DNA of 63,141 nucleotides, the filler included, from Stramenopiles sp. TOSAG23-6 (lineage: Eukaryota): NCBI GenBank assembly GCA_900128565.1. It is 10 parts of 10 records of this genome, joined end to end, with 100 filler letters (N's around TTAATTAATTAA, not from the genome) between each part and the next. Parts side by side here need not be neighbours in the genome. Positions count along the whole stretch, not along the records: positions 7,645 to 15,188 come from LT636553.1; positions 15,289 to 22,825 come from LT636554.1; positions 22,926 to 30,440 come from LT636555.1; positions 30,541 to 38,036 come from LT636558.1; positions 38,137 to 45,624 come from LT636559.1; positions 45,725 to 53,203 come from LT636560.1; positions 53,304 to 60,779 come from LT636561.1; positions 60,880 to 61,960 come from LT639773.1; 2 more parts are not named here. One strand, 5' to 3'. Of this stretch, positions 12,297-61,947 are shown piece by piece. The number at the start of each line of letters is the position of its first letter. Positions within the stretch are counted from its first letter, which is position 1. The notes under the pieces are model-generated. The model had not been told where the DNA came from. It saw only the letters and a list, made by a program, of their open reading frames with translations, and searched no databases. The translations under genes and the position numbers were made by a program.

Positions 12297-14030
12297 ATGA
12301 CTCGGATGCAAGTACTTTATTCGTGGTTTCCTAGATCTGTTCGACATGTGCGACCTCTTGCAACACGCACGTGTATACGTACTACACCTCTTTCAACAAA
12401 ACATGTGTATAGATACACCCATAGCTATAATTCACCAAACCTTGACTTTGACGACTTTTTTAATGCCGATGAAAGTCAAGAGCAACCCAGCGAAACTGCT
12501 GCAGCTGATATAGATTCTATTGACTATACAAATATTAGAAAATACTTGCGTCGTTTGTTGATGCGGGTGCATCCAGATAAATTAAGAGGATATCCAAGTT
12601 CTGTTTTAAAAATGAATGAGCAGTCGCTTGCCGTACTGAACGACTTTGTTGACATTGCAGAGCAAATGTGTTGCAGTAAACAGACTGTTGTAAACGGTGT
12701 AGGGGCCCGAATACCAGCATCTTATAAGCTAAAGTTTTTCTATATTTGTCCAAACCAGGATAAAAGTGTGTTGGATGATAAAGAGAAGCCTTCGAAACTT
12801 CTTCAATGTAGAATACACCTTGTCGTTCCGTCGGATCTTCAAGCAGCTGGTGTAAGTCTTTCTTCTGAACAGATTTCCAACTGGCGTGAATTTGTTCATG
12901 AAGCAATTTGTAATCTACTTCATGCAGCTGAAATTGAATTAGATGAAGAACTTTCTCGTGTTGCTCCAAGTATTGTGTCATCAATTAACGCAGCTCGTCG
13001 GTCAAAATCTCGAAGTATTCAACGAAGAAAAGAAGCCGAAGAAGAAAAACAATTTGAAGAGTATGCTGACCGTAGACTTGCACAAGATAGAAATAACCGT
13101 GCTGTATTTGCATCAGATTTATCTCCTAGTGGACAAGATGAAGAACGTAAAAAGATCGCACTCGATATAATTTCAAGGACTTTTGGATCAGGGAAAAATA
13201 CTGCTAATTTATCTCAAAATATTATTGAACAATTAGGACAGCCGCTTACTACAGAAGAAGCTTCTCTTGGAAGAATGTATGTTTTATTTTTTTTTGTATG
13301 AATTTTTTTTTATAGTACATTTTGTACCTAACAAATTTAAGTTTTTTTTTTTGAAATATTTTTCCAAAATATTTTTTTTTTATAGTAAATTTTGTACCTA
13401 ACAAATTTTAATTTTTTTTTTTGAAATATTTTTCCAAAATACATGCGTTTGTTTAGTATTCTCAGTGATGAATACTCATTTAATCGCCTTGGACTAGAAA
13501 CGCCTATATGGAATGATGTACGAATCATTCTCGCTAGAAAATTTGGATTATTAAAAAAAAAAACGTGTATCGTTGTTCCATTCGACGTTTCAGAAGATGA
13601 ATTTTTTGATGTTTGTGATGTATATCTGAATAAATTACGACGAATTTCTGCAAAGCGTAGAAAAATAGAGTTGCAAAATAATCTCTGTGCTGTCGATGAT
13701 GATAATAGTGAGAAGTGTGATGATAATTCCTCGGTTGGATTTTCTACCACTGAACAAAAAGAAAAACAAGAAAAACAAGAAAAACAAGAAAAACAAGAAA
13801 AACTAGAGTTTAGAATTGATGCGACTGATGGTATGGTATATACACTACAAGATTTTATTACATATTATGGTACTATAGAAGGAAGAGAGCAGTGGAAAAA
13901 ATCTAAAATTGTCAATGATTGTATAGATAATACTATAGATAAGGAAGAATATACAAAATTTTCAAATGAAATGCATTCGACGCAAAAATTACTTGACGCT
14001 TTGAAAGAGAATAAAAATCACTTGTTGTAA
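12297..14030 (+). CDS. DUF4460/TCAIM-like putative mitochondrial protein; exons 12297-13276 and 13445-14030
   Basis: R-rich presequence, LRRLLMRVHPD..NEQSLAVLN motif; frame joined by intron 13277-13444. Confidence 0.65.
13277..13444 (+). mobile_element. Family intron (GT..AT) with internal duplication of the core
   Basis: AGA AT|GTATGT...TACCTAAC (x2)...CAAAATACAT|G CGT; an in-frame AG further downstream also exists, so this copy is not diagnostic. Confidence 0.65.
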
Positions 14031-14281
14031 GACTTCTTTTAGTATTCAGAAATAATTCAATTTTTTGTATTGTTATTTTATAATTTAATAAAAATATGTA
14101 CAGCGTTAAATTATAAAACTAAGTCTTACCTATAGTTCTTGCATACTTATTAATCCTAACCCTAACCCTAATCATACCCTTCAACTTGAACATTCCAACG
14201 TGGCGAATTAGCAATGTTTTACATATTTTTGAAAATATGTGACCCTCCTGTGAAGCTACATAATGGGGTAGCTCCGACGTA

Positions 14282-15188
14282 TTAATCATCTGCTTGTGCA
14301 GCACCATGATCGGTGAGTAGTTGAACTACTTCTGCTGATGAAGCAACATCCAATGGGGTTTGTCCGCCGTTGTTAGCCTGATTGACATCAGCACCATTCT
14401 CAAGAAGTAGTTTAACTACCCCAACACGACCTTTATATGAAGCAGCATGCAATGGGGTGAATCCATCTTTCATAGCCTGATTGACATCAGCACCAGCATC
14501 AAGTAATATTTGAACTACTCCTGCATGACCATTATTTGAAGCAATATGTAATGGGGTAGCTCCGTATCTCTCAACCTGATTGACATTTGCATCAGCAGCA
14601 ATGAGTTTTTCAACTACTCCAACATGACCATTTGATGAAGCAATATACAATGGTGTAAATCCGCCTTTTTTAGCCTTATTGACCTTTGCTTTAGCTTTGA
14701 GAAGTTTTGCAACTACTTCCACATGACCTCTCTGTGAAGCAGTAAACAATGGGGTAACTCCGTTTTTATTAACCAGATTGACATCAGCACCATTCTCAAG
14801 AAGTACTTCAACTACTTTTGGATGACCATTCGCTGAAGCAATCCACAATGGGGTTCTTCCAAAATCGTCCACAGCATTGACAAGGATTACCTCTGTATCA
14901 AGGAGGACTTTAACTACTTCAACATGACCTCTCTGTGAAGCAAGATACAATGGGGTATATCCGTCATTTGTTGCCTTATTGACATCAGCACCAGCAGTAA
15001 TGAGTTTTTCAACTACTCCAGCATGACCATTTGCTGAAGCAATCCACAATGGGGTTCTTCCAAAATCGTCCACAGCATTGACAAGGATTACCTCTGTATC
15101 AAGGAGGACTTTAACTACTTCAACATGACCTCTCTGTGAAGCAAGATACAATGGGGTATATCCGTCATTTGTTGCCTTATTGACATCA
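14282..15188 (-). CDS. Ankyrin-repeat protein (5' truncated)
   Basis: Many TPLxxAS.xGH repeats; near-identical 201-nt tandem duplication. Confidence 0.9.
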
Positions 15189-15288
15189 NNNNNNNNNNNN
15201 NNNNNNNNNNNNNNNNNNNNNNNNNNNNNNNNTTAATTAATTAANNNNNNNNNNNNNNNNNNNNNNNNNNNNNNNNNNNNNNNNNNNN

Positions 15289-16400
15289 TCAGCTATTGCA
15301 GTCACTAACTCTCCTTTGTCATCAAGTGTAGCATGTACTGTGATGAAACTCGCCAAGAAATCTTTTAGATTGTACGAATGAATTCTCCAATAAAGCGAGT
15401 GCCTTTCCGAATTTATTTGTCCTGTAGTAACATTGCGCTAAATTATTAGCCAAAACTAAGGAAAATTCAGGTGTTGTGAAAAAATATTTTGAGAAAAAAA
15501 AATCGTCAAAGAGGAATTTTCTATAAAAAAAATAAATTTGAAAATTGTTATGAAAATGTACAGTATCTGTAGTTTTTGCAAACAATTTTTCAAAGACCTC
15601 TGTCGCTTTTTCAAGCTCATCAAGTCGCACGTATTGTGAAAAATATTTTTTTTTAAATTCGTTAGGTACAAAATTTTCATAGCAAAGATAATAAATTAAA
15701 AATTAAAGCGGACAGCATACAAATACAAACATCCAATTGTACTGAGTACAGAATCATCAATGGGTTCAGTTAGATCTATATTTTTTGCAACTTCAGATGC
15801 GCGTTCGTATAAATTCAAATCCATCAGTACTAGAATTTTACGTTGCAGACACTGGAGCATATTTGTTTTATGAGATTTATTTGGAAAATTTGTGTAAAAT
15901 TCGTGCGCTTGTTCCAACAAAGGTAAAGCCTCCTCGGAGGAACCTAATTGATAAAGAGCTCCTGCTACATCCGTTGCAGCACTCGCAATACAACTTTCGG
16001 GTCCTCCTTCGGTTTCGTATATAGTAACGATGGATGGGTATTTAGCTCTATCAGGGTTATTAGGTTCGGAGACCATTGTATAGTATTCTTGTGCTAGCTT
16101 AAGATTGAGATGGCCTGTGTACCTCTGGTGACAAATAGTGCAACGCGTCCACATACTAGCATTATATTTTGCTGCCTCAAGAATACACGAGATGTGGACA
16201 AATCCCGAACTTCCACGGCATGCACAGCCTCTATCTAGTTTTCCCCCGTTGCTACCCTCGTGACAAATGTAACACGAAGCATCTGTATTTTTTGCATCAA
16301 CAGAATTACGAGTATTTTCCATTTCTATATCCTCTTTCCTCAACTGTAAGTCATCATTTTCAGCTTCCGGTTTCAATTTGCTTTCACACTTGACTGTCAT
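15289..16400 (-). CDS. RING-variant (RING-CH) plus TPR protein, 3' truncated; introns 15629-15720 and 15469-15561
   Basis: CYICHE..RGCACRGSSGFVHISC..CTIC, followed by TPR-like helices. Confidence 0.8.
15469..15561 (-). mobile_element. Family intron (GT..CT)
   Basis: GAT ACT|GTACAT...TTTGAC...AAATATTTTTTCACAACACCT|GAA TTT; CT duplicated at both ends; 93 nt, in frame without a stop. Confidence 0.6.
15629..15720 (-). mobile_element. Family intron (GT..GT)
   Basis: TAT TT|GTATGC...TACCTAAC...CACAATACGT|G CGA CTT restores the TPR frame LYLRLDELEKA. Confidence 0.7.
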
Positions 16401-16707
16401 TTTTTAATAAATATAGTTAGTCTTGAATAATCTCAAAATCGATGTATTGCATATACATCCTTACGTATGACAACTGTAGACTGCTGCAGCCTGCATGAGT
16501 CATGACAGTGTACTATCTTGACACGTGGTTCGCAACCGTTTAAACTGGCGACCGTTAAAAAAGAATTTTGCCTATAGCTAGTATTCCATATGAATAACTA
16601 TAAGAACAAAAATAGTACAATCTTGTGCGTACGACTTGCCTATCTAGCAAAGAGTCTTCTTTTTGCACACGCACACGTAGAGTACCAAATAGTAAGCTGA
16701 ACTTGAA

Positions 16708-19010
16708 ATGTCTGGGTGTGTTACAAAGAGCTCTAGTGCGTCTACGAAACTCCAAATTTCACCTTGTAAGCGAGAAATTCGTGCTAAACGTATATTTCAT
16801 CTTCTGCAGTATAAAACAACAGGAAAATCAAAGACTTTGCTTAATAAAGAAGATATACATTCCCTAGTGACTCAAATGGGTCGTAATCCAAGAAAGAGGA
16901 AAAGAACAAAAATTTTGAGGAGCAAGAATAATATTGACACTTTATTTTCCAACATTGGGGAAAGAAATAAAATTGGTGTGACTTTTCCAGAGTTTTTTGA
17001 GTGGTTCACTCGGGAATATCCAACTTGTATAAACGACATTAAGAAACACATTCGCTTTCTTTTCGATGGTTTGGACAGAGAACATATAGGAACGTTATCT
17101 AGAGAAGATATCCAAAAATTAACAAAAAAGATAGTAATAAATATGAAGACGATTTTTAGTGGAAAAGAAAAGTTTAAGCTTGAACTACAAGATAAGAATA
17201 AGAAGTTATGTTATGACAATGACAGTCGCGTTTCATTTCATGTTTTTTTCACTTGGTTTGAAAAAACTATTCTTGAGCAAGTTTTATCTGGAAAATTACA
17301 AAATCGTGAGTTTGGAGAAATATTCATTGCTTCTGCCACTTCAAAAGCAAAAGAAGTTGATGAAAAATTAAAATTGAAGATGGAAAAACACCGAAATAAT
17401 AGTGCTACTATAATCCAGTCTATGGCGAGAAAACGCTCACGAAAAATCATGGTTGAAAAACGAAAAAGACGCTTGATATTGGAAGCAGCTCAAAAGCATA
17501 GATTAGAAATTCAGCGTCGTATACGTGGATTTGTTGTGTTACAGTCATTATTTAGAGGTATTAATGCAAGGAAACAGTATACACTCTTAGCTGAGGAGCA
17601 TAAGAGACATAAGAGAAAACAGCTGATTGTGTTACAGTCATTATTTAGAGGCATCAATGCAAGGAAACAGTATAAACTCTTAGCTGAGGAGCATAAGAGA
17701 CAACAGCTGATGAAATATAAAAAAGCGCAAAAAGAAAAATGTCTTAGACTCAAGCAAAGAAAGGCTGCTATACAATATTTAAAAGTACAAAAATCAAAGT
17801 CAAAGGCTGCTATAAAATTACAATCAAAGTCAAAGGCTGCTATAAAATTACAATCATTCTGTAGAAGTATTTTTGCTCGAAAGCATAAAAATGCAGCTCT
17901 AAAGATACAATCATTATTTAGAGGTACTTACGCTCGGAAGCGGAATGCATTATTAGCTATATTGAAATACTCAAATGGTTTAAATTCTATTCATGAAAAG
18001 GATGAGTACATGAAATTATTATTGGGTGTCAATACATTCAACAAAATAGAAAAAGATTTTGTACAAAAACTTGAAAAAAGTAGAAAAACAAAAACAAACA
18101 CAATAAAAATAAGTCAATTGTGCAAAGATTTTAAAACTATCCAGGATCGTAATAAATCAATAAAGACAAGCATGTTTGATTCTTCGATAATGAATCAGTC
18201 TAAGGAAGACTTTCGCGTATCATTAAATATGTTGTGTAAAAATTATAAGACTAGTCCTTTGAAACAAAAAAGTTTATTGGTTCTTGCAATTTCAAAATGC
18301 CTGGCGAAGTGTAGATATGAAAAGGCTCATTCTGTTTCACGACGGCTTTACATAGAAGCAGACGCAAAACAATCACGGCTCGAAGAATCTAAAAGAATTG
18401 AAGATAAATTACACAAATTACGATGTATGGCTGCACATCCAAAGACTTCTCCTAAATCTAGAAAGATTCTTGAACAAATTGAACAAAGGGAAGGAAGTTC
18501 GACTCGCAAAATTAGTCCTTTTGGTCATCGATTACATCAGCATGGTGAGCAACGATCCCTTGCTATAGCTGCTAAAAGGCAGAAAATATTAGATCAATAT
18601 GAAGTAAAAATGGCAGAAGTTTGTACATGTATGTTGTATTTAAATTTATTTTTTTTCAATTTCAAAAAAAATATTCATTATTTTTAGAAAATTTTGTGCC
18701 TAACAAAAAAATTAAATTTGACATATTTTCTCAAAATATATTTAGTCCAAAAACAAATCATACAATAAAACGCGAGAAAGCCAAGCTTTGTAAAAACACA
18801 AATAGAACGAAACAAAATGGTATAAGTCACAAAGAAAAGCAACATTGGTCAGAACGCCTATCACCCTCACAAGAAAGTATTGGAATATTACTAGATAAAC
18901 GTGCAGAAGATGCACGTCAAATTCAAATGAAATCTTGTACATTTCAACCAGATATCTCAAAGTCAATGGAATCTCTAAAAAATAACAGATATTTAAATTT
19001 TTCAAAATAA
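16708..19010 (+). CDS. EF-hand plus multiple IQ-motif protein; intron 18629-18741
   Basis: Degenerate EF-hands, repeated LQSLFRG.NARK IQ motifs, CTFxP repeats. Confidence 0.75.
18629..18741 (+). mobile_element. Family intron (GT..AT)
   Basis: ACA T|GTATGT...GCCTAAC...CAAAATATAT|TT AGT CCA gives CTFSPK, matching the later CTFQPD repeat; the nearby AG gives a stop within a few codons. Confidence 0.75.
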
Positions 19011-19045
19011 ACATTTTTTTCAAAATAATCAAATGATCTCTGTTT

Positions 19046-19107
19046 GTCTCTCTATCTGTCTCTCTATCTGTCTCTCTATCTGTCTCTCTATCTGTCTCTC
19101 TATCTCT
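19046..19107 (+). repeat. (GTCTCTCTATCT)n minisatellite
   Basis: About five tandem 12-mers. Confidence 0.9.
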
Positions 19108-19148
19108 GATTAGAAAATATTTGTGAGATTCTTCGACATTCAAACTTA

Positions 19149-19220
19149 ACCGCGGTGGTGTAGTGGTAATCATATTCGCTTCCCAAGCGAATGCCCCGGG
19201 TTCGATTCCCGGTCGTGGTA
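19149..19220 (+). tRNA. tRNA-Gly(CCC)
   Basis: Cloverleaf: acceptor ACCGCGG/TCGTGGT, D-loop AGTGGT, anticodon arm TTCGC-TTCCCAA-GCGAA, T-arm CCGGG-TTCGATT-CCCGG. Confidence 0.9.
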
Positions 19221-19332
19221 GATTTTAATCTAAACATTTTCCCCGGGTTCGATTCCCGGCCGTGGTACTTTCTGTTACATACATTTTCTTTAAACAAAAT
19301 TTTTCAACGATTTTTATAATATTATGTTCGAT

Positions 19333-20604
19333 TTAATTTAAAAGTCTTTTTTGTGAAATATCTGGTGAAACAGCTTCTTCTGAGAAGATACTCAAACTTG
19401 CAGCTCTCATACCAAATTCAACACTCTCATACAATTTATTACCATTTGCAAGCATATAAACAGTTGCACCAGCTAAAGTATCACCTGCACCCGTACAATT
19501 AACTATATCTTTCGCAATAGTTTGTGGAGATATTTTATGTACTTTCAAAACTTCATTCGTGACAGAATCAAGTATTGTGAAAAAATATTTAAAAAAAAAT
19601 CGTTAGGTACGAAATTTCGTATGAAAAACAAAAAAAGTTAAAAATTAAGGTGAAAAAAATCAAGGGTTAAAACGTACAATAGTTGGTTTTGCTGATACTA
19701 TAAAAACTCCTTTTGATCCTCTTGTCACTATAATATGTTTGAATTTTGCTTTACCTTCTCCTACTTTCATATTTTTTATGACTGTAGCTGCTAAATTAAT
19801 AATGTCGTCTTCAGTGACATTTTTGTAATCTGTTTTTGCATCAATATCGCGATTATGAATTGCATCCACAATGGAACATATATTATGAAAAAGTATTTTA
19901 GAAATTTGATTTGTTTGTTAGATACTATATGTACTACAAAACAAAATTGAAATGAATGATAAAAGCATACACATGTATTTTGGAAAAATATTTCAAAAAA
20001 AAAACTGAAATTTGTTAGGTACAAAATTTCGTACGAAAAAAATATTTAGACAAAAAATTGAAAAAAAAAACATACAATTCTTCAACATTAGGAGATAAGT
20101 ATGTAAGTTGTCGACAAGACAATAACCCATTAGACACTGCAAATATTGTGAAAAATATTTTTTTTTTTTTGGATAATAAAAAAAATCATTAGATGCAAAA
20201 TGTACTACGAAACAAAAAACAAAAACATAACAAAACATTTTGAAAACGCACACGGTGTGCCTTTGGTACAGATGTAGATTCAAACCAAATCAAAGGTTTA
20301 TTTCCCATATTTCCCATATTTCGAATATCCGATTTTGTTTTATCAGATTTTGTTTTATCAGATTCGTCTTCAACACAAATTGTGAATAATTCTTGCATCG
20401 TATTTCTTGATAAATTTCCATCTAAAACGACAATGTATATTGAAAAATATTTCAAAATATTTTTTAATTTGTTATGAGTCAAATTTTCATAGTAAAAACA
20501 AAAAAAAATAAAATTGAAAATAATGGAAAACGTATATACTAGATGCTTTAATGGAAGATTCAAACGATCTGATGTCTGAACTGCTCAACGTTTCTAGGAC
20601 CTGC
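19333..20604 (-). CDS. PfkB-family kinase (pseudouridine-kinase-like), C-terminal part; introns 20433-20535, 20141-20251, 19973-20075, 19878-19970, 19570-19677
   Basis: Spliced product: IVVLDGNL..WFESTSVPKAHR..YLSPNVEEL..IIVTRGSKGV..IVNCTGAGDTLAG. Confidence 0.8.
19570..19677 (-). mobile_element. Family intron (GT..TT)
   Basis: ACT ATT|GTACGT...TACCTAAC...CACAATACTT|GAT TCT; TT duplicated at both ends. Confidence 0.7.
19878..20075 (-). mobile_element. Two tandem family introns (19973-20075 and 19878-19970) separated by a 2-nt exon at 19971-19972
   Basis: GAA TT|GTATGT..ACAT|GT|GTATGC..ATAT|GT TCC gives PNVEELCS; each intron has its own CTAAC. Confidence 0.7.
20433..20535 (-). mobile_element. 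Family intron (AT..AT)
   Basis: AGT AT|ATACGT...ATACAT|T GTC GTT TTA GAT GGA AAT gives SIVVLDGNL. Confidence 0.7.
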
Positions 20605-20704
20605 ATGTATTTTGGAAAAATATTTCAAAAAAAAAAAACTGAAATTTGTTAGGTACAAAATTTTTATAAAAAAAAAATTCATACAAAAAAAAAATAAAAC
20701 ATAC

Positions 20705-22596
20705 ATGGATACTAGTTTTTCTCTTTTAATTGATTTTGGCCAAACAAGAGATACAATTTGAACAACAATTTTTGCCATGACACGTGGCATTACAGTATTC
20801 GTTTTTCGTGTAAAGGTAGGAATTCCAATAGACGCTAACCCTAGAGATTGTTCAGGTATTGGTTCGTTACCAGGTACAACATTATCCATTGCAGTGTGTA
20901 TTGTGAAAAAATATTTAAAAAAAAATCTAAAAAAATCNTNAGNTACAAANTTNGTACGAAAAAAAAAATTTACTCAAAAAAAAAAAAATATTTGAAATGT
21001 ATCATTGAAACAAACAGTACAAGCTGAAATAAATAATGATAATGCGGAAGAAATATCATCCCAATAAAATGAAAGAATACTTCGGATCGTTTTCATTTTT
21101 TCATGTTTTTCATGTTTTTCATGTTTTTCGTTTGTTTTGTGTTTTTCGTGTGTTTCCTTTTTTTCGTTCTCGACACAAACCTGTTGAATAGGTAGAGAAA
21201 GTTGTGTAGTGCCTCCAGTGGTATATACAACTGACTTTATAACATTATACAAACAGTCAAGTGCAAATTTAGCTTGAATTGTAAATGGTTCCCGGGTCCC
21301 TCGAAGTAAAGGCAGGATGTATTTTAAAAAAATATTTCAAAATTTACTAAAAAAATTTTTTTTGTTAGATACAAAAATTTCAAAAAAAAAAAAAAACTTT
21401 TTTGTTTTTTTGTTTTTTTGTTTTCTATGAAAATTTTGTATAAAAAAATAAAACATATATAATATTTTGCATCGCAAAATCAAATTTATATTTTGCAATG
21501 ACAACAACAAATGCAATACAAGGTGGTACATCTTCATTTTTACTCATATCTTTCGAATTTTTTGATAAAAAAGAATTATATGTATATGAATACGGATTAT
21601 CGACATTAGGGTTAGGGTTTGTCGAATACATTTCAACATCAAAAACGTCAAAAAAATTACAAACATCAATCCAATAAGTAGGGTTAGGGTTTTTAAAGTT
21701 TTTAAGGTTTTTAAGATTTTGGTTCACATCTATGATATTGTTCAAAAGTATACTTGTTGGAATATTTTTGAAATTATCAAAATGAATATTATCTAAAAAA
21801 TTAGACAATAGATTAAATGTAGAAGGAAGATATTGTGAAAAAATATTTTTTTTGTTTTTTGTTAGGTACAAAATTTCGTACGAAAAAACAAAAATGAAAA
21901 AAAAATATTTTTTTTTGATTTTTTTTTGTTAGGTACAAAATTTCGTACGAAAACCAAAAAAAAAAAATTAGGCAAAAAATATAATGAAAACGTACACAAT
22001 CACTGTTTTACTCAAATGTCTGCTTTTATCTTTTATTTCCTTGGATGTGGCTCGAGAAAGTAATACAGAATTTTGTACTATCGGACAATATTTCAAATTG
22101 TTTTTTTTAAATTAGGCTTACGTACGAAATTTCGTATGAAAAAAGTTTGAAATTTTGAAATTTTTTTTTTTTTCAAAAAAAAAAATGATGTATAATTTCA
22201 AAACAATTTCATTTTGAAAAAAAAAAAATTGTAAGAAAATTTTCATAGAAAACATAATTTGAAAACAATTTTAACTTTTGAAATGTTAGATGATTCTAAA
22301 AATACATATATATATATATTGAATATATATATTGAATATATATATTGAATATATATATTGAAATGTATGCAATCATGATAATAGAAACAAAACGTACAAC
22401 TATTGGTTGCAAAATTTTTAACACAGTCTGCCCAGGATTAGGGTTAGGGTTAGTAATGCATTTTGAAAATCGAATCAACATTTCTGAAATTAAAGTTGTT
22501 ATACAAGTTAGTGTTACTTCTCGATACTTCATATGTTTTTTATATACATTAAGAAGTGGTTTTATTATTGTTGATAGAGACGTTGTCCAGCCATCC
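20705..22596 (-). CDS. Fragmented multi-exon hypothetical gene with family introns (20605-20704, 21317-21458 AT..AT, 21828-21995 GT..CT, others); may be mis-joined to the PfkB gene
   Basis: Open exon frames join across 21317-21458 and 21828-21995; no recognisable domain. Confidence 0.45.
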
Positions 22597-22653
22597 TATA
22601 GAATTTAAAAAAAAGTCCAAAAAAAAATAGGGTTAGGTATAAAATTTTCTATG

Positions 22654-22688
<35 letters not shown>

Positions 22689-22924
22689 TTTAAAAATTTT
22701 TAAAAAAAAAAAAAAATTTTTTTTTTTTAGGTAAAAAATTTTATAAAAAAAAAAATTAAACAAAAAATTAAAAAAAAAAAAAAAAAAAAAAAAAGTTTTT
22801 TTTTGTTAGGTACAATATTTACTATNNNNNNNNNNNNNNNNNNNNNNNNNNNNNNNNNNNNNNNNNNNNTTAATTAATTAANNNNNNNNNNNNNNNNNNN
22901 NNNNNNNNNNNNNNNNNNNNNNNN

Positions 22925-25900
22925 NCGGGTAAAACTGGCGAATATTATCTTCAGCACAGTTGGGGTCTTTATGCTGGTGTTGCTCCTCAAGCGGATTGCT
23001 TTACTATTAAATCGAAAACACATGGCCTTTGGTGGCCTGCAATTTCTACATCAAATTTTTCAAGTGAAGTATTCATCCGTTTTGGAATTAAAGGCAGTCG
23101 TGTTTCAATAGCATTAGCACCAGACGAAACAATAGAAAACGGAGGATACACAACATCACATTGCCCCAGGGGTTATCAGGTACACCAAACAATGCCTTTA
23201 TGTTGCCAAGGAAATTGTATCACAAAATGTGATCAGAATAATATCAAGTGTGCAAAGGAGGTATGCGCCTTAGATGTATTGTATGTGTGGGATAATCCTG
23301 TAAAAGAATGCGATACACTCGAAATAGTGAAACAAACTGAAAGGATTCAACTAAGTGATGGTCCATGGTCCAACGAAGGGCTTCTATCAGCACTACTTGT
23401 AACAGAAAATAATAGTAGTAATGCTCCCAAATGGTACCCGGTATGTTATAACGTTAGTGAAATAGTAGTAAAAAATACGGCAACTGTTGCTTGTCGCAAC
23501 CTTGGTTTTGATGGGCTGCAAGAGTATATAATGAAAAATAAAAATGAAGAGAAAAATAATGGAAAACTTATAAATATTAATTGCCAAGGAAATGAAAACA
23601 GTCTTCAAGAATGTACCATACATGGAAAAAGTGAATGTCAAACAAACCGACAGTTATGGATTAAGTGTCAATCGCTATATAGAAACACACTTGACGAAAT
23701 GTATAAATTCTCTATTGATTCACACACTTACAAAATGTCGAAATATAATAAAGGTATGGTGCAATTGTTAGATGAAAAAGTAAATGCATCAGAAACATTG
23801 GTTAATTCGAGCATCTTCTCGTGGTTTTGGATCTCTTTGAAAAAGAAAGAAAACCAGTTAAATATAAATTTTGGAAAAGGTTTAGACAAAGGGGAAAATG
23901 TACTATTGAAACACGAAGAAAATTTAACTCAATCAATAGACTTCAGTCGCATTCTTGTGCAAGCTTCAGATGCATCTCAAGCAAACTTTATAATTTGTAA
24001 AGAACCATTACTTTGTGATAAAACTCCAAAAGTTGGCTCGACTCACCCGGAAAATGCAGTATCAATCAATTCAACTGAAATAGCACATGGAAGCAAGGAA
24101 CAGATCTCAATAATTAACGAGTCAATTTGTAATATTTATGGCTCTTGTTATAATCCATGGTATGGGGGTCCTAAATGCTTTAAACCGTCAAAGAAACCAG
24201 AGGTCGATGATCATGGAGAATTTCGTTTTAAATCACCAATTGTAGAAAGTATATTATCTCCAAAACCAGTCGAACAAACAAATGTCACAATGAAATTAAT
24301 ACCAACTTCAAAGGAAAGCGAATATACTTGGACTTTGCAATATGTAGGTAGAGCGTTGACATTTCCCCCCAAAGAAAACTGGTCGCCTACTTTAGACCAA
24401 ATTATGAGTGATGTTGCAAAAGCATCACCTAAGGATAAAGAATATTTTCTTGCTGGACAAGCGAAACTTTATGAATATTCATCATTCCTCCGTAACGTAA
24501 CAACTCTAGAAAAAGATTATGAAAAACTTAGAGACGAAGCGCAGAATGCAACTCGAATATTCGATGGATTATTGTCAAACTCAACATTGGCACATTCAAA
24601 ACCATTGACTTCGGAAGCTGGTGTATCACGATTAAAACAAACTGATGCCAACGATTTATGTGCTACTGGAGCAATAGATTATACTTCATATGGTCCTAAA
24701 TGTGTGAAAGCGTTCATCAATGGAAAGTCATGTATTTCTTTGTCTATAATTAATAGTAATCTTTTATCATGTATAGTTCCAGCTGGAACGGGTAAAGATA
24801 TGAAAGTCAGCGTTTCATCAGATAATCAAAGCAATACGAATGCAAACGTAACACTTGCATATGACAGACCTAAAATAGATTCTATATATCCATCGAATTC
24901 GCCCGTCTTGGGAGGAACAACTTTACATGTATCTGGATCTAATTTTGGAGATCCATCGACCAATATCACTCTGAATTTATACATTAGAGGTAAGCCATGC
25001 ATTTCAACGATCCATATTTCGGATACAGTAGCAAAATGTATTGTACCACCCAATATTGGAAAAGGGGCAATCGTTACTGCTACAGTGAATAAACAAACGT
25101 CAGAAAGCAAGGTCTATCTTACATATAATAATCCAAGAATTGATTCTGTAGAACCACCAATTATGTCTACAAAAGGTGGCGAACTTTTAATTACAGGAAT
25201 AAATTTTGGATTTATGAATCATACAAAATCCAAAAACAATAATTCTCTTGTAGTGGAATTTGTCAGTGACGGAGATAGTTCATTTCGTGGATCTTGTTCG
25301 AACATAAAATGGAAAACGGATGGGGCAATTACATGCACAGCCCCGCCAATACAGTCTTTAAAACGTATTGATGGAAATCTTTCAATAGTTGTCAAGGTGT
25401 GTTACCCGAATAATTCAGACAAATCAAATTGTTTGGGCTCATTGAGATATAAGATTGAATATCAGGGTCCAACAGTCAAAAGTGTTAGCCCTAGTGTTAT
25501 GGATACAATAGGCGGTAAGCCCTTGGAAATACATGGGGAAAATTTTAGTGAAAATTTGGATGCTTTATTTATTGGTACTAACAGATGCTTAAAAAACAAT
25601 ATAGTATATATAAACCCCCAATTAGTGCGATGCACAAAAGTACCACCCGGGGTAGGATCTGATTTAAATGTTCAAGTTCTTATTCGTGGTAGAGCATCAG
25701 TCCAAAATAATTTTTTTAGTTATGCCTCTCCAACTGTAACAAAGGTTATCGTCGACAATAATTCTATTTGGGGNCCTCCNCCCGCCGGTGCATTTTATCG
25801 AGATCATATAGATATCGGAATAAAATATCATATTAAAGTTTACGGTAAAAACTTTGGACACAGTAAGAATTCTCAAAATGTTTTAATAAATGGGGTACCT

Positions 25901-50367: not shown

Positions 50368-53148
50368 TTAGCCAGCAAAACCTTTATCAAACTCCTTCAG
50401 TAATTGATTAGCTACTTGTGTGACAATAACCATACCCCTATTCACAACAGACAACTGTCTCACACAAGGCCAAATACCAAATTCAAGTAATAACCTTCTT
50501 GGCCTTGGATGAGCTTTAAAAGCACTTTGTAACATTAATAAAAGTCTTGTTCTTACACGAGATGTAGGACATTGTAATAACTCAATCAAACGAAGTATAA
50601 ATAGTGGAGATAATGATAAAGATTGACTAAATCGTCTTGAAATTGACATCATTCTTTCTAAAGGCTCTAACAAATCTTCTAGTCTAGTTTCCGGTACACC
50701 ACGAAAAAATGAAATGATCTGACTTGAAACTGGAGAGCGAAGAAGTACAGATTCAACACGTTTCGTATCATCTGATAGCCATTGTTTTAATGAGCCTAAT
50801 GCATGTCTCTGACAGTATGGATCTTTCAGTAAATGTACGTAAAATTCAATAGCTTGATTTTCCCAAAGATATTTGTGAACTCCAGTATTATAAGCCATTT
50901 CACACATAATAGGTAATGCAAATTCAAGACCATTATCAAGAGTTGCTGTACCACTTGTTTGAGTTCCTATCTGAGCAAGTGATGTTTTTCTTGATGCAGA
51001 ACCAAGAGATAATGACTTCTTTGCAAGAGTTACAGCACATTTTAACAATGGTACTATACCTGCATCTGCAGCTACCTTTTGTCTTCCTCTATTGAGTCGT
51101 AACAAATAGAATAATATTTGAAATAACATTCCTTCGCGACTATCAATCCCAGATACACCATCAACATCTTTCAAACTATTATTTTTTAAACTATTTTTTC
51201 CATCCTTTTTTACAGATGTTTTGTCCGTTTTGTCGTCTTTTACATCTAGCGTTTTTTTCAGGAGAGAGACGAGGACAGGTATAGCACCACATGTATATAA
51301 AATCTCTAAATTATTAGGCAAAGATGCAAGATTTCGTATTACTAAAAGGACTTTATCCATGATACGTTCAATAGTGTGTGAAGTCATTGATGAATTTCGA
51401 CTATTTTTTACTTCATTCTGAAATACATTCAAGACTGATAACAGACCACTCACTAAATTTACAGAACCAATCGCTTCTAGTGTAGACCTATTTTTACAAA
51501 ATAAACGCACCAATAGATCAGCGACATGATCGCCAAATGATTCAGCAATTGAAGAAAATGAGTTTGAATGTGTTGATTCAATGATTAGAGTTTTTTCATA
51601 CCCTAATGTTTTTAAAAGTAAGCCTTGCTCTCCAGCTAATCTATTGGCCAAATCACCACCGTCGGATATAATGAGAGATACTTCATGCTGTACACCAAAT
51701 CCACCATATCCTTCGGGGGGTTCACTTTTTAATATACAGAGTAATCCTTCCACTCCATAGAAAGATAACTCATGCTCTCCCTTCTTACGTTTTTCTTCAT
51801 TAATACGGGAATGATTTTTTGAGAATTTATCATCAGAGATCTCTACATGACAATTAATTAAAGACGAGAGGACAATTGCACCACCACAAGAGATGAACAT
51901 CCTTCTAGTAGTTATCGTGCCTTTGCATAATCCAACCATAAGTTTGGAGGCTTCAAGTCGTACACAAAAGACATTTCCTACGGAACTAAATCCAAGAATA
52001 ATAGGAATGATCCCTAATAAAGTTAACATTTCAAGCAGAGGTTCGTCATTAATAACTAAGCAACTAAGAAGCTGAAGTGCCGAGAGCGTCAAAGCAGAAT
52101 TGTTTTTTAACGTAGAAGAAGTCAATAAAGCGAGTAAAGGCGCGACTCCTCGACTTTGAATAAAAATACCTTTTGTGAGTATATCATGACAATCCTTTCC
52201 TCGAGTACTAAAATGTTTCTGTAATGATATACAAGCCTGGTGAATTTCTTCATCATCCTGATCACTGTGTCCTTTAATTTGTGAAATTAGCCGTTTCATC
52301 TCAGATGACATGGGTAAAATATCAGTATTCGCAGCATTCCCACCAGTATTTTGATAATTCGATAGGTACGAATTTTTATCAACATTAGATAAAGTATTAC
52401 TCGACAAATGTATTTTGGAGAAATATTTCAAAAAAATTCGTTAGGTACAAAATTTCGTACGAAAAAAAAACTCGAAATTGAAAAAAAAAAATACATCCTC
52501 TCCAATATCAAATGAGCCTAACCCTAGACAACTTCTATTTATTCCACTTCGCAGAGATGAAAATCCAAATAAACCAAATTTTAATTCTACTCCCGGAAAT
52601 TTACGTAACAAAGGTGATTCGCTTGCCTTGAAAGGATTATTGTTTTTTTCATCCATAGACATTATATTTGGCAAATTTGAAATTGAATCTGTACTAGATT
52701 TCGTTTCATGAAGTTGTAACACTAATCCATTATTTGCATTATGACATGTATCATCTTCAGAATTAGATATACTTATATCTAATTTTTTCAATATTTTAAT
52801 TTTGGTGAGATCATTTGTCATATCACTTTTTGGTCTTGGTGTTGTTGGTCTTGGTGGTGCTTTCCCTTTTTCGATGATAGGGCTTCTTGAAATTTTCCCA
52901 CTTTCTTCCTTTACATTTTCAATTGTACCATTTTCAACGGTTTCAACATTAGGGTTAGGGTTCGAAACTTTTCGAGGTCTTGGAGGTGGTATTTTTTTAT
53001 CTTCTACATTTTGATCAAAAAACATTTTTTTTGTAGTTATTTTTGGTGACATTGGACGTGAAGGTCTGGGAGGAACGACTTTTACTAGTATATCCGTATC
53101 AAATCTCTTACATGTATTAAGCATTGAAATTCGCATCATATAAAAGCA
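50368..53148 (-). CDS. ARM-repeat C-terminal region of a Cdc15/SepH/MAP3K-epsilon-like kinase; intron 52408-52494
   Basis: RQKVAADAGIVPLL, FALPIMCEMA, LW....EFYV.LL.DPY....AL....WL..D..RVE. Confidence 0.65.
52408..52494 (-). mobile_element. Family intron (GT..AT)
   Basis: GAG GAT|GTATTT...TACCTAAC...CCAAAATACAT|TTG TCG joins two long ORFs. Confidence 0.75.
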
Positions 53149-53352
53149 ATGTATTTTGGAAAAATATTTCAAAAAAAATCGTTAGGTACAAAATTTCGTA
53201 CGANNNNNNNNNNNNNNNNNNNNNNNNNNNNNNNNNNNNNNNNNNNNTTAATTAATTAANNNNNNNNNNNNNNNNNNNNNNNNNNNNNNNNNNNNNNNNN
53301 NNNGAAATTTTGTACCTAACAAATTTCGAATTTAATTTTTTTTACAATACAT

Positions 53353-54730
53353 GTGATGTTTTAGAAGTGAAAACGTATAATAGATTAAGCCCTCTGACTA
53401 TAAGTAATACGTGTATACAACATGATATTGAACATGGTATAGAACCTGGTGATTGTTTGATTGCTTTCAGTCGGAAAGAAATATGTACTTTTTCATGATG
53501 ATGTTTTGATTTTTTTTTTTTTTTTTTTTGGTCATGAAATTTTTTTTTTTAAAATTTTTTTTTTTTTTTTTTGATTAAAAGAACGTATCGATTCGATGGG
53601 TCATAAATGTTGTATTGTATACGGTTCATTACCCAATGAATCAAGAAAAGAACAGGCAAAATTATTTAATACACCTAATAATGGTTATGATATTCTAATA
53701 GCAAGTGATGCTATTGGCATGGGTTTGAACCTTAATATTAAAAGAATTATTTTCACAACTTTACAAAAATTTGATGGCACTCAGACAAGGACACTCTACC
53801 CCCAAGAAGCCCGACAAATTGCTGGTCGTGCTGGTCGTTTTAACTCTGAATATTCTGATGGTTCTGCTATTTGTTTGCAGCGTGAAGATGTAAAAACATT
53901 GAAACATTTAATGCAATCTAAAGTTCCCCAATTAGAAAAAGCTGGGTTATGTTGTAATGATGAACAAGTTGATAATTTTTGGTATTTTCTACAAGAATCT
54001 AGAGACTCAACTCAAGAAGTTCCATTTAGTGAAGCTTTGCGACTTTGTAATGATAATGTTAAAATAGATTCTTCTTTATATTTTATGTGTAATGGACAAG
54101 ATTCAGAAGAAGTAGCACGATTGATCGACGATATTGAAATTCCTGTCGCGGATAGAATATATGTTTTAATCAATTTCAAATTTATTTGTTTTTTCATAGA
54201 AAATTCTGTACCTAACAAAAATTTTAATTTTTTTTTGAAATATTTTCACAAAATATATGATTTTTGCACGAGCTCCAGTAGATGTTGGAAATGAGAACGT
54301 CGTCGCATGTTTTCAAAATTTTGTTTATGAATATTCTACAATTATTTCAAGAAAAACACACGAAATACAAAGTGTATCTCTCAGTGGAAAGTTAAAACTA
54401 CGACAAAATGGTATACCACGAAATCCATATAATGTCGCAAAATTGGAAGATATGAACAAAATCTTGGAAATTTATTCTTGGTTGTCTCTTCGATTTCCTT
54501 CTTATTTTGATGAAGCTATTGAAGCTGAATATAAACAAAATGAAGTGGCTGATTTGATTGCCTCAGGCTTAGATAGAATGAGTGATAATGCTGGTTTTAA
54601 ACATTCTATACGAAATAAAAGACGCCGATTTTCTATTAGCCCTAACCCTAACACTAAGAGACTAAAAAGTCACTCTACAAAAAGAAATAAAAATTTCAAA
54701 AGAAAAAAGAAAAGAGTAAAAAGATGTTGA
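53353..54730 (+). CDS. SUV3: Mitochondrial RNA helicase SUV3 (5' truncated); introns from 53485 and 54159-54258
   Basis: Y.RLSPL, GDC.IAFSRKEI, VYGSLP..R..QA..FN, ASDAIGMGLNLNIKRIIF, QIAGRAGR, Y.WLS.RF. Confidence 0.92.
54159..54258 (+). mobile_element. Family intron (AT..AT)
   Basis: AGA AT|ATATGT...TACCTAAC...CACAAAATATAT|G ATT TTT gives DRMIFARAP, the SUV3 R-x-x-F-x-x-AP spacing; no in-phase GT-AG pair nearby. Confidence 0.8.
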
Positions 54731-57144: not shown

Positions 57145-57985
57145 ATGGATCCTGATAACACATTTACGTATAAGCTTGTACTATTGGGTGAGACAGCAGT
57201 TGGTAAGAGTAGTCTTGTAATGCGTTTTGTAAAAGACGAATTTAACAACTGCCAGGAAAGTACCATTGGAGGTAAGTAAAATTTCGTTTTCATCTCTATT
57301 ATTTCATCCACGAATAGACGTGATATAACATTCATGGCTATTATTTGTGCGGACATTTCGTCTGAATCATTTATTTGTTTTGTGTTTTGGTTATTATACA
57401 GCTTTTGAGTGTGAAGGAAAGCCTCTTTCACCTCAAAAGTATACACAGTTCAATGCCGAATAATACTAAAATTAAATTTTTCATTTCAATATTTATTACA
57501 TTATAGCTGCATTTTTCACGCAAAAGGTTAATGTCGAACGTGATACAGTTAAATTTGAGATCTGGGATACAGCAGGGCAAGAACGTTACCAAAGTTTGGC
57601 ACCAATGTATTACCGGAATGCAAAGGCTGCAATTGTTGTTTATGATATCACAGATATGGCTTCATTTGAGCGTGCAAAGAGATGGGTAGAAGAGTTGCGA
57701 AGTTCAGGGACTGTAGATTTGGTCATTGGTATGGCTGGCAACAAGTGTGATTTGGAAGAAGAACGAAAAGTCCCTACAGCACGAGCCCAGGAATACACAT
57801 CCGCAAATAATATGGTTTTTCTTGAAACCTCTGCAAAGACCAACAAAAACGTCACCGAGTTATTTAGTAGTATCGCTGTAAAGCTCCCTAGGGGCACTCG
57901 TCAAGGTGCTGGTAATAGTATGGGATCGGGAGGATTGCCTAGGCCTAGGTTACAACAACCTCAGAGGAAAAAAGGCTGTTGTTGA
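57145..57985 (+). CDS. RAB5: Rab5-family GTPase; canonical intron 57272-57506
   Basis: [49 protein letters not shown]-terminal CC; G|GTAAGT..TAG|. Confidence 0.93.
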
Positions 57986-58262
57986 TTTCTGTTTTCAATG
58001 TTGGTACGGAATTTTGTATGAAAAAGAAAACCTTTTGCGCGATTGGTTTTTGTTCATGCTTGAATATATTTGAATATATACATATGTTTATGATGTAATA
58101 TTATGAATATTTCATGTATCTCTAATGTAAAGTGTGCTCTATATTTCATGCACAATATTTTATTGATGTGGTCTATAATTTTAAGACACATATTGAAAAT
58201 TTTGAAGAAAAGTGAATTTTATTAAATCTAACATTTTCAGCTAATTTCATGTTTTTAACCTT

Positions 58263-60724: not shown

Positions 60725-60945
60725 ATGTATTTTGGAAAAATATTTGAAAAAAAATCTAAAAAAATTTGTTAGGTACAAANNNNNNNNNNNNNNNNNNNNN
60801 NNNNNNNNNNNNNNNNNNNNNNNTTAATTAATTAANNNNNNNNNNNNNNNNNNNNNNNNNNNNNNNNNNNNNNNNNNNNTACTTTTATACATTGTAGGAT
60901 AATATATTTTTTTTTTTTTTTTTTTTTTTTTAGGAAAAAAATTTC

Positions 60946-60989
<44 letters not shown>

Positions 60990-60993
60990 GTAC

Positions 60994-61947
60994 ATCGTCT
61001 TCTGAAGTAAACACGAAATTAGCTAATTTGATATCCCTATGAGCAATATCTTTGGAATGACAATACTGAATTGCTCCTAACATTTTCCGTACCTAGAGAG
61101 AAAACAAAATGTAAAAAAAAAAAAAATCTTAGGTACAACATTTCGTATGAAAAAAAATTGAAAAAAAAAAATTAAATTTTTTTTTCTTAGGTACGAAATT
61201 TCGTATGAAAAAAAAATTGAAAAAAAAAATAAATTTTTTTTTCTTAGGTACAAAATTTCGTATGAAATATTTAAATAAAAAAACGTACGAGACGTCGAGT
61301 CGCTGATTCTGAATATCGTTTACCAGGTTGTGCTTGTAATCTATCATATAACTCTCCCCCAGTACATAACTCCATGACCATATATTGTACAGAAATATTC
61401 TAAAACTTGAAAAAAAAATTATGTTTTGCTTTTTTGCTTTTTTGCTTTTTTGCTTTTTTGCTTAGGTACAAAAATCCGTATGAAAAAAAAATGTTAGGGT
61501 TAGGGTTTGATATATTTTTTTTGTCCATTTGTAAAGCAAACATTGAAATGAGTGAGGAAAAAAGTACATATGAATAATATCACCTTGTCTATATGTTCGA
61601 TGGAGTTTAACAATGTTTGGATGATCAAGTTGTTTTAAAATTTCGATTTCGTTTAAAAGTGTTTTTCGATATTTTGGTAACACTTTTTGTAAGTCAATAA
61701 TTTTCATGGCATAACGAACTCTAGTGCGTCGATGTTCAATGACGACGACGGAACCTGTCGTACTTTCACCCAACTCTCGTGTACCAATATCATACACATC
61801 TTCTACCTTTTCATCTGTACGTATGGGTACGAGATTACTATAGGATGAACACATCCGTAAAGGTGGGTTGTGTCGTGGTTCAGTCAAATAATCATCATCT
61901 ACACCGCTTTTTTTATGACTATGACTTGTACTAGAACATAAACCCAT
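60994..61947 (-). CDS. CDPK/CaMK-type protein kinase, N-terminal part; introns 61380-61567 and 61093-61288
   Basis: MGLCSS acylation-type start, NEIEILKQLDHPNIVKL, MVMELCTGGELYD, HRDIKLANF. Confidence 0.85.
61093..61288 (-). mobile_element. Family intron with a canonical end (GT..AG) and three tandem core copies
   Basis: CGT CTC|GTACGT...(GTACCTAAG)x3...TCTCTAG|GTA CGG AAA ATG. Confidence 0.8.
61380..61567 (-). mobile_element. Family intron (GT..AT)
   Basis: CAT AT|GTACTT...TACCTAAG...ACAATATAT|G GTC ATG GAG gives IHMVMELCTGGE; the two AGs nearest the 3' end are out of frame. Confidence 0.85.

Follow-up and report, generated by a model that had tools for sequence, protein, structure and literature searches.

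A family of repeated, putatively transposon-derived introns that appear to end in NT rather than AG in a marine stramenopile genome

The stretch of DNA analysed here (the window) spans 63,141 nucleotides (nt), filler included, of the single-cell assembly of Stramenopiles sp. TOSAG23-6 (GCA_900128565.1) and consists of ten contigs, eight of about 7.5 kb and two of 1.08 kb, joined by spacers of the form N44-TTAATTAATTAA-N44. Its G+C content is 25-40%, and its open reading frames (ORFs) encode ordinary eukaryotic products, namely parts of SUV3 and Mtr4-type helicases, Rab5, protein kinases, SF3A2, an HD-domain 5'-deoxynucleotidase, a PfkB kinase, and TIG, leucine-rich repeat (LRR), ankyrin and EF-hand/IQ proteins. 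The subject of this report is a family of short, related inserts that interrupt these genes; the inserts carry the 5' splice site and branch box of ordinary U2-type introns while apparently ending in NT, mostly AT, instead of AG (Table 1).

A hidden Markov model (HMM) of the family, seeded with five copies, iterated once and applied with nhmmer at E<=0.01, gave 39 matches in 63 kb, distributed over eight of the ten contigs, all to one element of 85-190 nt; the notion of a widespread family present on most contigs, put forward in an original prediction made from the sequence alone, is thus borne out. The host genes are unrelated to each other: SUV3, a kinase, an HD hydrolase, a PfkB kinase, and TIG, LRR and IQ proteins. 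There are 22 complete copies (86-188 nt, median 103), all inside genes; a further seven are partial or fragmentary, and one more, with internal N's (20893-21020), was excluded from every count. All 22 complete copies are in the sense orientation relative to the flanking ORFs. Copies are interrupted by contig ends in at least six cases, as expected of a high-copy repeat that breaks assemblies. In the DNA sequencing run X1, 7584 of 99,615 contigs matched a 5.6-kb stretch, and the summed depth, which is not a copy number, was about 3-6e5 over the element parts and about 5 over the unique parts; this depth shows that the genome contains very many copies of the element.

The sequence logos, built from 21 rows (the twin copies at 20075-19878 counted as a single row), match the donor, T-tracts, branch box and terminal module as they had been described. 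The last exon base is T in 20 of the 21 rows. The intron starts with G (17 rows) or A (4), followed by an invariant T at +2, A (18) or G (3) at +3, C (10) or T (11) at +4, G at +5 (17) and T at +6 (20), and then by a T-run. Hence the 5' site is GTAYGT, as in yeasts, with the extension complementary to U1 and U6 that is typical of U2-type introns. In 19 of 21 rows, the distance between a GTACCTAAC-like branch box and the 3' end is 33-48 nt, with T-runs behind the box; in the same 19 rows the (GTAC)CTAAC-like box conforms to the YTRAY branch-site pattern of U2-type introns. Of the two exceptions, the copy at 38818 has its box 57-157 nt from the 3' end, and that at 61567 has GTACCTAAG, a CTAAG box outside the search pattern, with only telomere-like CTAAC further up. 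The 3' module reads ..C-A-(A/C)-A-A-T-A-Y-N-T, where all 21 rows share A(-4), Y(-3) and T(-1), and the penultimate base N varies (15 A, 3 C, 2 T, 1 G). The last three intron bases are YAT in 15 rows; read in the register 2 nt upstream, they are TAY in 18. The downstream exon begins with G in 14 rows. A terminal AG is found in none of the 22 copies, which end in AT, CT, TT or GT, the nearest AG being 20-175 nt upstream or 4-75 nt downstream of the 3' end. In every copy, R at +1 is accompanied by U at -1, and a U-tract is located just upstream of the 3' end.

Most positional details of the original prediction hold: the coordinates of the kinase (61380-61567), SUV3 (54159-54258) and HD (35400-35493) copies are correct, and so are the CT ends at 15469 and 21828, the TT ends at 19570 and 20141, and the GT end at 15629. 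The CT-ending intron listed under 37684 exists as well, but 37684 is its 5' end and the CT end is at 37858. An exonic T had been claimed to precede the donor of every NT-ending copy, which is true of 20 of 21 rows and fails at 31935, where the base is G. The predicted 1-nt ambiguity of the boundary is real: a T precedes the donor and another T closes the intron, which lets the cut move by 1 nt in every copy; where G opens the second exon, it may also move the other way.

Several copies show additional internal structure. The introns at 13277-13444, 21828-21995 and 61093-61288 contain two or three tandem element cores (the ..TTTTCGTACGAAATTTTGTACCTAAC.. part) each and, consequently, several branch boxes per intron. 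Directly 5' of the CTAAC box lies a palindrome CGTACGAAATTTTGTACC (with variants such as CATACGAAATTTCGTACC; e.g., 52440-52470, minus strand), which folds as a hairpin of 5-6 bp in several copies. In the kinase intron, a (GCAAAAAA)4 microsatellite is found between the branch box and the 3' module (61400-61460, minus strand) and accounts for the lengthening of this intron to 188 nt.

Frame restoration provides the collective evidence that these inserts are removed between the observed ends. The positional rule is simple: the 5' cut is placed before the R of RTAYGT, and the 3' cut after the T of the terminal A-Y-N-T. With this rule, the flanks are in frame in 20 of 22 copies (binomial 3e-8 against an expectation of one third), whereas the same donors combined with the first downstream AG or the nearest upstream AG yield 6 of 22 and 9 of 22, respectively, i.e. 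the chance level. When frames are taken from the longest flanking ORFs alone, 16 of 22 copies are joined in frame; for the donors 20075, 19970, 20251 and 61567, the frame was set by the intron chain or by homology and not by ORF length, because a spurious AT-rich ORF there is longer than the short true exon. The most extensive chain is that of the nine-intron PfkB-type gene (22111-19336, minus strand), whose 576-amino-acid product is stop-free and aligns to positions 442-657 of a PfkB-type profile (14 long sequences from the 114 matches of a full-library search), a region that spans six family junctions. In the copy at 19570-19677, the spliced chain is likewise stop-free and aligns to the PfkB HMM, with the junction in a variable loop. 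Separate removal of the twin copies 20075-19973 and 19970-19878 leaves the dinucleotide GT (19971-19972) and produces a conserved PNVEEL-type PfkB motif in frame, which implies either a 2-nt exon or stepwise (recursive) splicing. Removal of the twin as one intron of 198 nt was also considered and rejected as out of frame.

At some sites, protein conservation constrains the junction directly. In SUV3, the alignment to the solved human SUV3 (PDB) stops exactly at the last residue of exon 1, and when all 1383 junctions within 36 nt that are in frame and free of stops are scored with a profile built from 60 homologues, the junction of the rule and its silent slides come out on top, with 348.4-348.5 bits as compared to 335.7 bits for the best GT/GC-AG pair. 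At the IVVLDGN motif of the PfkB gene (donor 20535), the class of junctions that includes the rule's own lies at most 0.2 bits below the top of 769 in-frame junctions, and the best GY-AG pair is 15 bits lower. In the TIG repeat (25941), the junction codon T^GT (the caret marking the cut) encodes a cysteine that is conserved in the other repeats of the same protein, so that the rule yields the ..LLxC.. pattern. In the kinase (61567), homology to kinases in the PDB continues to the exon end, and the hinge motif at the start of exon 2 can be read from the sequence. Conservation thus makes a strong case that the junction lies where the rule predicts at SUV3, the PfkB IVVLDGN motif, the TIG cysteine and the kinase hinge, but not at the HD gene (35147-36482, minus strand), where positions 89 and 95 of Pfam HD_3 flank the junction and the rule supplies five residues for positions 90-94. 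The published protein P0001 matches exon 1 of the HD gene with 100% identity; it is a model that employs a GT-AG pair, GTATTT..CTAAAG, and as a result runs 9 codons into the intron, loses the first 5 codons of exon 2 and lengthens the loop by 4 residues. Homologue searches returned only this identical model and distant homologues for the HD exon, only sequences of <=55% identity and no identical record for SUV3, and no matches in one library for the PfkB exon; a near-identical transcript-derived protein crossing a junction was found in none of them, and Pfam gave no matches on the short exon pieces. The case for the family as a whole rests on the collective rule more than on single sites.

Sequence of the stretch 15289-22825 is also present in the DNA runs and in seawater metagenomes. 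A metagenomic DNA contig from another study (X4 record 17) spans the intron at 15469-15561 and carries the same CT end, its three differences from our sequence all lying elsewhere. Hence the CT end at 15469 is not an error of the consensus, an eventuality that the original prediction had named as capable of refuting it.

What the original prediction missed is the signature of a mobile element, i.e. a 2-nt direct repeat together with the very high copy number and the breaking of contigs in copies. The two bases before the donor are the same as the last two bases of the intron in 13 of 20 copies, as compared to 38% when flanks and ends are cross-paired (permutation p=0.0035), and the direct repeats include CT-CT twice and TT-TT once. 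This suggests, with moderate support, that the short direct repeat is the signature of a 2-bp target duplication, which would also explain the exonic T before the donor. In the copy at 25941, the upstream repeat is GT, which is part of a Trp and a Cys codon, and the downstream one is AT; this fits the view that the downstream, intronic copy would be free to drift toward YAU. The family shows two of the features by which introners, i.e. introns propagated as mobile elements, are recognised: many similar copies at unrelated positions and, with moderate support, a target-site duplication at the borders.

Taken together, these data are best read as transposon-derived introns of the U2 type with AG-independent 3' sites, an interpretation that we consider probable. 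The sense-only orientation, the yeast-like 5' site, the CTAAC box and the U-tracts point to a strand-specific removal at the RNA level. A related observation comes from the kinase gene, where repeat cores without the terminal AYNT module belong to a normal GT-AG intron (61093-61288) flanked by exons that, as read from the sequence, form continuous kinase subdomain V-VIb sequence. Together with the unique GT-AG intron of Rab5 (57273-57506), this intron confirms that ordinary introns exist alongside the family. From this pattern we infer spliceosomal removal at the RNA level, the exact cut, a G/A(+1):U(-1) pairing and the transposon mechanism. The following scenario can be envisaged. The element would bring with it a strong 5' splice site (GTAYGT, at times ATAYGT), a body rich in U, GTACCTAAC as a branch box similar to that of yeast, and AAATATTTTT-C-CAAAATAY as the 3' module, and would insert with a 2-bp target duplication (NT). 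The RNA piece removed would cover the element itself (GTAYGT...AAATAY) and the second, downstream copy of the duplication; the intron would then read RT...AYNT, and the pre-insertion mRNA would be restored without a scar. Exon ligation would take place at a 3' site devoid of AG, mostly YAU behind a U-tract and 33-48 nt from the branch A; this site would probably be docked by pairing of the first intron base (G or A) with the last one (U), in a spliceosome whose second step is relaxed or altered. A bolder version of this scenario, which we consider to be about evenly balanced between right and wrong, is that the major spliceosome of this abundant, uncultured stramenopile lineage possesses an AG-free second step in which the 3' U is docked on the first base, as happens in yeast only in the absence of Prp18, and that an NT-duplicating element exploits it, yielding thousands of scarless introns and mis-spliced predicted proteomes.

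Several observations weigh against this interpretation. The simple rule is broken by two of the 22 copies. For 31935-32044, the in-frame options are a removal of 109 nt (31935-32043 or 31936-32044) or of 118 nt (31935-32052, with the end ATGT). For 38818-38645, removal from GTACGT (38818) to ACAT (38645) takes out 174 nt, which is out of frame, and 176 nt are needed, given that the frame is fixed by the downstream LRR frame (..IPxEIG-type repeat, ..KKYLRSR..); the solution T^ATGTAC(38820)...ACAT^(38645) gives the same product as ATATGT(38822)...AC(38647). Both rule-breakers can still be written as RT...NT, outside the simple motif rule. Some judgement entered the count of 20 of 22 through the four frames set by chain or homology. 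Five of the six PfkB junction scans have low resolution; equal-length alternatives of the +4/+4 GT..AG kind are available at 18629, 20251 and 20704, the one at 20704 scoring similarly; and at the HD gene the GTATTT..CTAAAG pair of P0001 scores 245.9 bits vs 243.4 bits for the rule (profile of 80 homologues). Accordingly, the earlier assertions that conserved protein motifs fix the junctions and that no in-phase GT-AG pair is available stand for SUV3, the kinase and IVVLDGN and fall for the HD gene and the CTFSPK repeat. As to the transposon, the terminal inverted repeat comprises only GTAT..ATAC plus T/A runs and is short and of low complexity; no autonomous partner turned up, no search for a transposase having been made; no empty site was found; and neither of two metagenome scans gave a relative. 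One of these scans used a protein query from the exon 15723-16403; the other used a 17-base element core and hit 64 loci, which nhmmer revealed to be chance matches with no full element. As to RNA, the assembled contigs of one metatranscriptome, which contained 7% of the sampled words of 15289-22825 and were compared over 15289-20937, showed no spliced joint at an intron among the joints listed, and in one of them (X7 record 32) the exon runs into the intron 20605-20704, indicating unspliced RNA or DNA. This library yielded a few exon contigs plus intron-containing ones, and it may contain DNA or unspliced RNA, its ratio of element to unique depth being like that of the DNA runs. The original claim of AG-independent splicing thus retains the sense orientation in 22 of 22 copies, the frame in 20 of 22 and the conservation at four sites on its side, and lacks a spliced joint among those listed. 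A generic scan for GT..AYNT introns outside the family was uninformative, since AYNT is too common in AT-rich DNA.

How do other explanations fare? The closest one keeps the same introns and moves both cuts 2 nt upstream, so that the termini become NT...AY (AT...AC in about half of the copies) and the introns would be of a U2-type AT-AC-like kind. In this register, the invariant A(-4) and Y(-3) would form the last dinucleotide, AC or AT, in 21 of 21 rows; 13 of 20 copies would yield an identical mRNA; 11 of 20 have AT as the flank; the in-frame solution at 38818 can be written in this form as well; and the introns of Fritillaria are reported to end in a YAY triplet (PMC13326754). However, the upstream register creates an in-frame TGA at 25941, with the loss of the conserved Cys context, and therefore cannot be general. 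Moreover, the flank and the terminal dinucleotide differ in 7 of 20 copies (25941, 15720, 20075, 19970, 20251, 21995 and 38483), in six of which, being translated, the product would be altered (one stop, five substitutions), and GTAYGT would be shifted to +3 to +8, in conflict with U1/U6 pairing as generally understood and also with the U12 5' motif. We regard this register as unlikely. Still harder to accept is removal of the inserts at cryptic canonical GT/GC-AG sites, with small insertions or deletions left in the proteins. That is what the P0001 model does at the HD gene, with an equally good homologue score, and the +4/+4 pairs at three copies would permit the same; but AG-based rules restore the frame at no more than the chance level, no stop-free in-frame GY-AG pair exists within 45 nt of the donors 31486, 15561, 20075 and 21458 (in a scan of 20 rows, the twin being one composite), the best GY-AG pairs are 13-15 bits worse at SUV3 and PfkB IVVLDGN, and the kinase and TIG motifs would break.

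The remaining explanations dispense with the major spliceosome. Excision of the RNA by a non-spliceosomal mechanism guided by pairing of the ends, as proposed for the nonconventional introns of euglenids and the introners of Amoebophrya, could draw on the weak complementarity of the ends (GUAU..AUAC), which are paired in three of eight minimum-energy folds, and on the border direct repeats, as in Amoebophrya (PMC7789003). The fold z-scores, however, range from -2.3 to +0.7, with one of eight below -2, and thus give no sign of stable pairing; by our reading of the logos, the 5' variants GTACGT and GTGCGT occur without compensating changes at the 3' end; and conserved, strong U2-type 5' and branch signals would be needless for such a mechanism, which makes it improbable. 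Elimination at the level of DNA, in the manner of the internal eliminated sequences of ciliates, with the assembly representing the unprocessed form, would agree with elements that are short, AT-rich, very numerous and bordered by direct repeats, and with a removal that is precise and restores the frame. Yet a DNA process does not require that 22 of 22 copies be in the sense orientation, the DNA contigs of X1, X3 and X4 carry the inserts, and no DNA joint among those listed skips exactly one insert; besides, the borders are T^RT..NT^ and not TA..TA, and the long ORFs in the standard code offer no hint of a ciliate. It seems highly unlikely that the inserts are removed in this way. Finally, introns of the minor (U12-type) spliceosome have the 5' motif RTATCCTT and a branch box that typically lies about 10-15 nt from the 3' end. 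None of the 21 copies contains a 5' motif of this type, and the distance between the box and the 3' end, 33-48 nt in 19 of 21 rows, is too large, so that the minor spliceosome appears to be the least plausible agent of all, notwithstanding the RT at the 5' end, the TACCTAAC box, which loosely resembles the U12 branch consensus, and the tolerance of this machinery for varied 3' dinucleotides, introns with non-AG/AC ends being on record (PMC1557818).

Several known systems share some of the features of the family, assuming that its members are U2-type introns with AG-independent 3' sites. The appendicularians Fritillaria borealis and F. pellucida are described as having a 3' AT in 34% and 44% of their introns, respectively, and GT/AG in only 5%, with AG/AC and AG/AT intron classes, processed by the major spliceosome, and YAY as the last triplet (PMC13326754). 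Massive use of non-AG 3' ends, a YAY-type end (YAT in 15 of 21 rows here) and a U-rich tract before the end are common to both cases. Unlike the introns described for Fritillaria, the family has GT (17 of 21) or AT (4 of 21) at the 5' end, within a strong GTAYGT, so that only the 3' end deviates; furthermore, Fritillaria is an animal with RNA evidence, whereas here we deal with a protist and with one repeat family that has a conserved branch box and is known from DNA. The introners of Micromonas, Aureococcus, dinoflagellates and other groups, as surveyed in PMC9860276 and PMC12130899, are similar in being short, non-autonomous, sense-oriented repeats that carry splice signals into many unrelated genes, with target-site duplications at the borders and the mRNA restored upon removal; those described there are GY-AG introns (the curation accepted a 3' AG or AC), whereas the family reported here ends in NT. 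According to the same sources, introner surveys begin with annotated, RNA-supported introns; hence, a family of this kind in an unannotated single-cell assembly would go unnoticed.

In Amoebophrya, more than 60% of the introns are reported to be non-canonical, with repeat families that have border direct repeats of 3-5 nt (PMC7789003). The resemblance extends to the marine protist host, the repeated families and the direct repeats that render the exact cut ambiguous, but the Amoebophrya introns are described as having inverted-repeat hairpins of 8-20 nt and no common terminal dinucleotides, in contrast to the family here, which has no consistent hairpin and in which the 5' GT, the branch box and the terminal T are conserved. 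A mechanistic parallel is provided by Saccharomyces cerevisiae lacking Prp18, in which CAU and UAU are given as the non-G 3' sites used most often, a strong poly(U) tract upstream of them is required, and a U(-1):G(+1) pair has been proposed (PMC10711555). Both the CAU/UAU 3' sites and the U2-type GUAUGU/UACUAAC signals have counterparts in our family; the yeast HAU sites, however, are low-level errors of a mutant, whereas here such splicing would be constitutive for a whole family, and 6 of 21 copies have C, G or T at -2. Euglenids, too, possess introns with non-canonical borders beside conventional ones, as well as 'intermediate' forms that mix both, but the euglenid type is portrayed as having an end-joining secondary structure and variable borders (PMC4770533), and no such structure is conserved here. 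What is unusual in the present case is that the canonical 5' and branch signals are kept while the intron ends in U. In the literature searched on non-canonical introns, introners and MAST-3, supplementary files being outside the search, no such family has been described for marine stramenopiles; the words 'splice' and 'canonical' are absent from the text of a single-cell genomics paper on MAST (marine stramenopile) lineages, and 'intron' is absent from that of a MAST-3 culture paper.

If our interpretation is correct, the family adds an independent example of AG-independent splicing on a wholesale scale, with a canonical 5' site and branch box, and hundreds to thousands of near-isogenic test introns would be at hand in which 3' splice-site choice without AG is isolated. 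The family would also connect with the idea of G+1:U-1 docking that emerged from the yeast prp18 work and with the U2AF changes described in Fritillaria, and it would exemplify an element that creates an intron by providing the 3' site through its own target duplication. On the practical side, gene models for this ecologically important group would be wrong wherever a predictor forces GT-AG, as seen in the 4 extra residues in the HD domain of P0001, and in this assembly any gene model with a family copy may be affected; introner surveys limited to 3' ends AG or AC, as far as their stated curation goes, would miss such families altogether.

Table 1. Copies of the element family and other introns in the window (the caret marks the cut between exon and intron; codon numbers are those of the two flanking ORFs)
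Position	Strand	Length (nt)	Borders	Phase	Description
13277-13444	+	168	T^GTATGT...ACAT^G	2	two tandem cores; in-frame join of 327- and 194-codon ORFs
15469-15561	-	93	CT^GTACAT...ACCT^G	0	CT end and CT flank; chain fits neighbouring intron
15629-15720	-	92	T^GTATGC...ACGT^G	2	GT end; joins 227- and 101-codon ORFs
18629-18741	+	113	T^GTATGT...ATAT^T	1	IQ/EF-hand gene; 644 + 88 codons
19570-19677	-	108	TT^GTACGT...ACTT^G	0	TT end and TT flank; PfkB gene
19878-19970	-	93	GT^GTATGC...ATAT^G		twin, downstream member
19973-20075	-	103	TT^GTATGT...ACAT^G	2	twin, upstream member
20141-20251	-	111	GT^GTGCGT...ATTT^G	0	TT end
20433-20535	-	103	AT^ATACGT...ACAT^T	2	within PfkB IVVLDGN motif
20605-20704	-	100	CAT^GTATGT...ACAT^G	2	
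20893-21020	-				copy with internal N's; ends ambiguous, no T at the expected 3' place (..ATACAC/ACT)
21317-21458	-	142	AT^ATATGT...ACAT^C	2	156 + 113 codons; no stop-free in-frame GY-AG within 45 nt
21828-21995	-	168	GT^GTACGT...ATCT^T	2	two cores; CT end; 38 + 133 codons, chain check
25941-26026	+	86	GT^GTACGT...ACAT^G	1	TIG repeat
31486-31580	+	95	CAT^GTATCT...ACAT^C	2	314 + 127 codons; no GY-AG alternative
31935-32044	+	110	G^ATATGT...ACAT^G		breaks the rule, out of frame
35400-35493	-	94	AT^GTGCGT...ACAT^G	2	HD-domain (HDDC2-like) gene
37684-37858	+	175	CT^GTGCGT...ACCT^A	2	CT end and CT flank; 355 + 56 codons
38381-38483	-	103	TT^GTATGT...ACAT^G	1	LRR gene
38645-38820	-	176	T^ATGTAC...ACAT^G		rule-breaking copy, LRR gene
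52408-52494	-	87	AT^GTATTT...ACAT^T	0	229 + 679 codons
54159-54258	+	100	AT^ATATGT...ATAT^G	2	SUV3 helicase gene
61380-61567	-	188	ATAT^GTACTT...ATAT^G	2	kinase hinge; contains (GCAAAAAA)4 and (CCCTAA)2
61093-61288	-		C^GTACGT...CTCTAG^G		GT-AG intron, kinase gene; three repeat cores, without terminal AYNT module
57273-57506	+		G^GTAAGT...TATAG^C		ordinary unique GT-AG intron, Rab5; not in family
37971-38036	+		T^GTATAT..		5' part of copy, cut at contig end
45725-45804	-		G^GTATGT..		5' part of copy, cut at contig end; exon -1 is G
53149-53203	-		..ACAT^T		3' part of copy, contig end
53304-53352	+		..ACAT^G		3' part of copy, contig start; upstream of SUV3 exons
60725-60779	-		..ACAT^G		3' part of copy, contig end; upstream of Mtr4-like DSHCT exon
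60905-60993	-		T^GTACGT..		degenerate copy, kinase gene; 5' end at 60993, 3' end unclear near contig end
33878-33933	+				core fragment without recognisable ends, between two plus-strand ORFs
58003-58030	-				short core fragment, between Rab5 and the next gene

A few further features of the window deserve mention. The first contig (window positions 1-7544) is nearly filled by two huge minus-strand ORFs of 1543 and 962 codons with EF-hand matches, has a strong strand skew (AT skew about -0.37) and contains no copies of the family. Single N's or short runs of N occur within contigs at 4632-4656, 20938-20953, 25774-25780, 28776-28779 and 29305-29325; one set falls in a family copy, the ends of which are for this reason unreadable. 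An Rfam scan of the window returned nothing but one tRNA, a single tRNA-Gly(CCC) gene at 19149-19220 (plus strand) with the IQ/EF-hand gene on one side and the PfkB-type gene on the other. The window also contains nine telomere-like (TTAGGG)2 dodecamers, as compared to none in 100 shuffles (8466, 11489-11506, 14155-14171, 21606, 22438, 52949, 54641 and 61494); one lies within the kinase intron, and at five loci they are inside long ORFs, where the C-rich strand is always the coding one, in the frame N-P-N-P-N. These dodecamers could be either repair footprints or a coding microsatellite.

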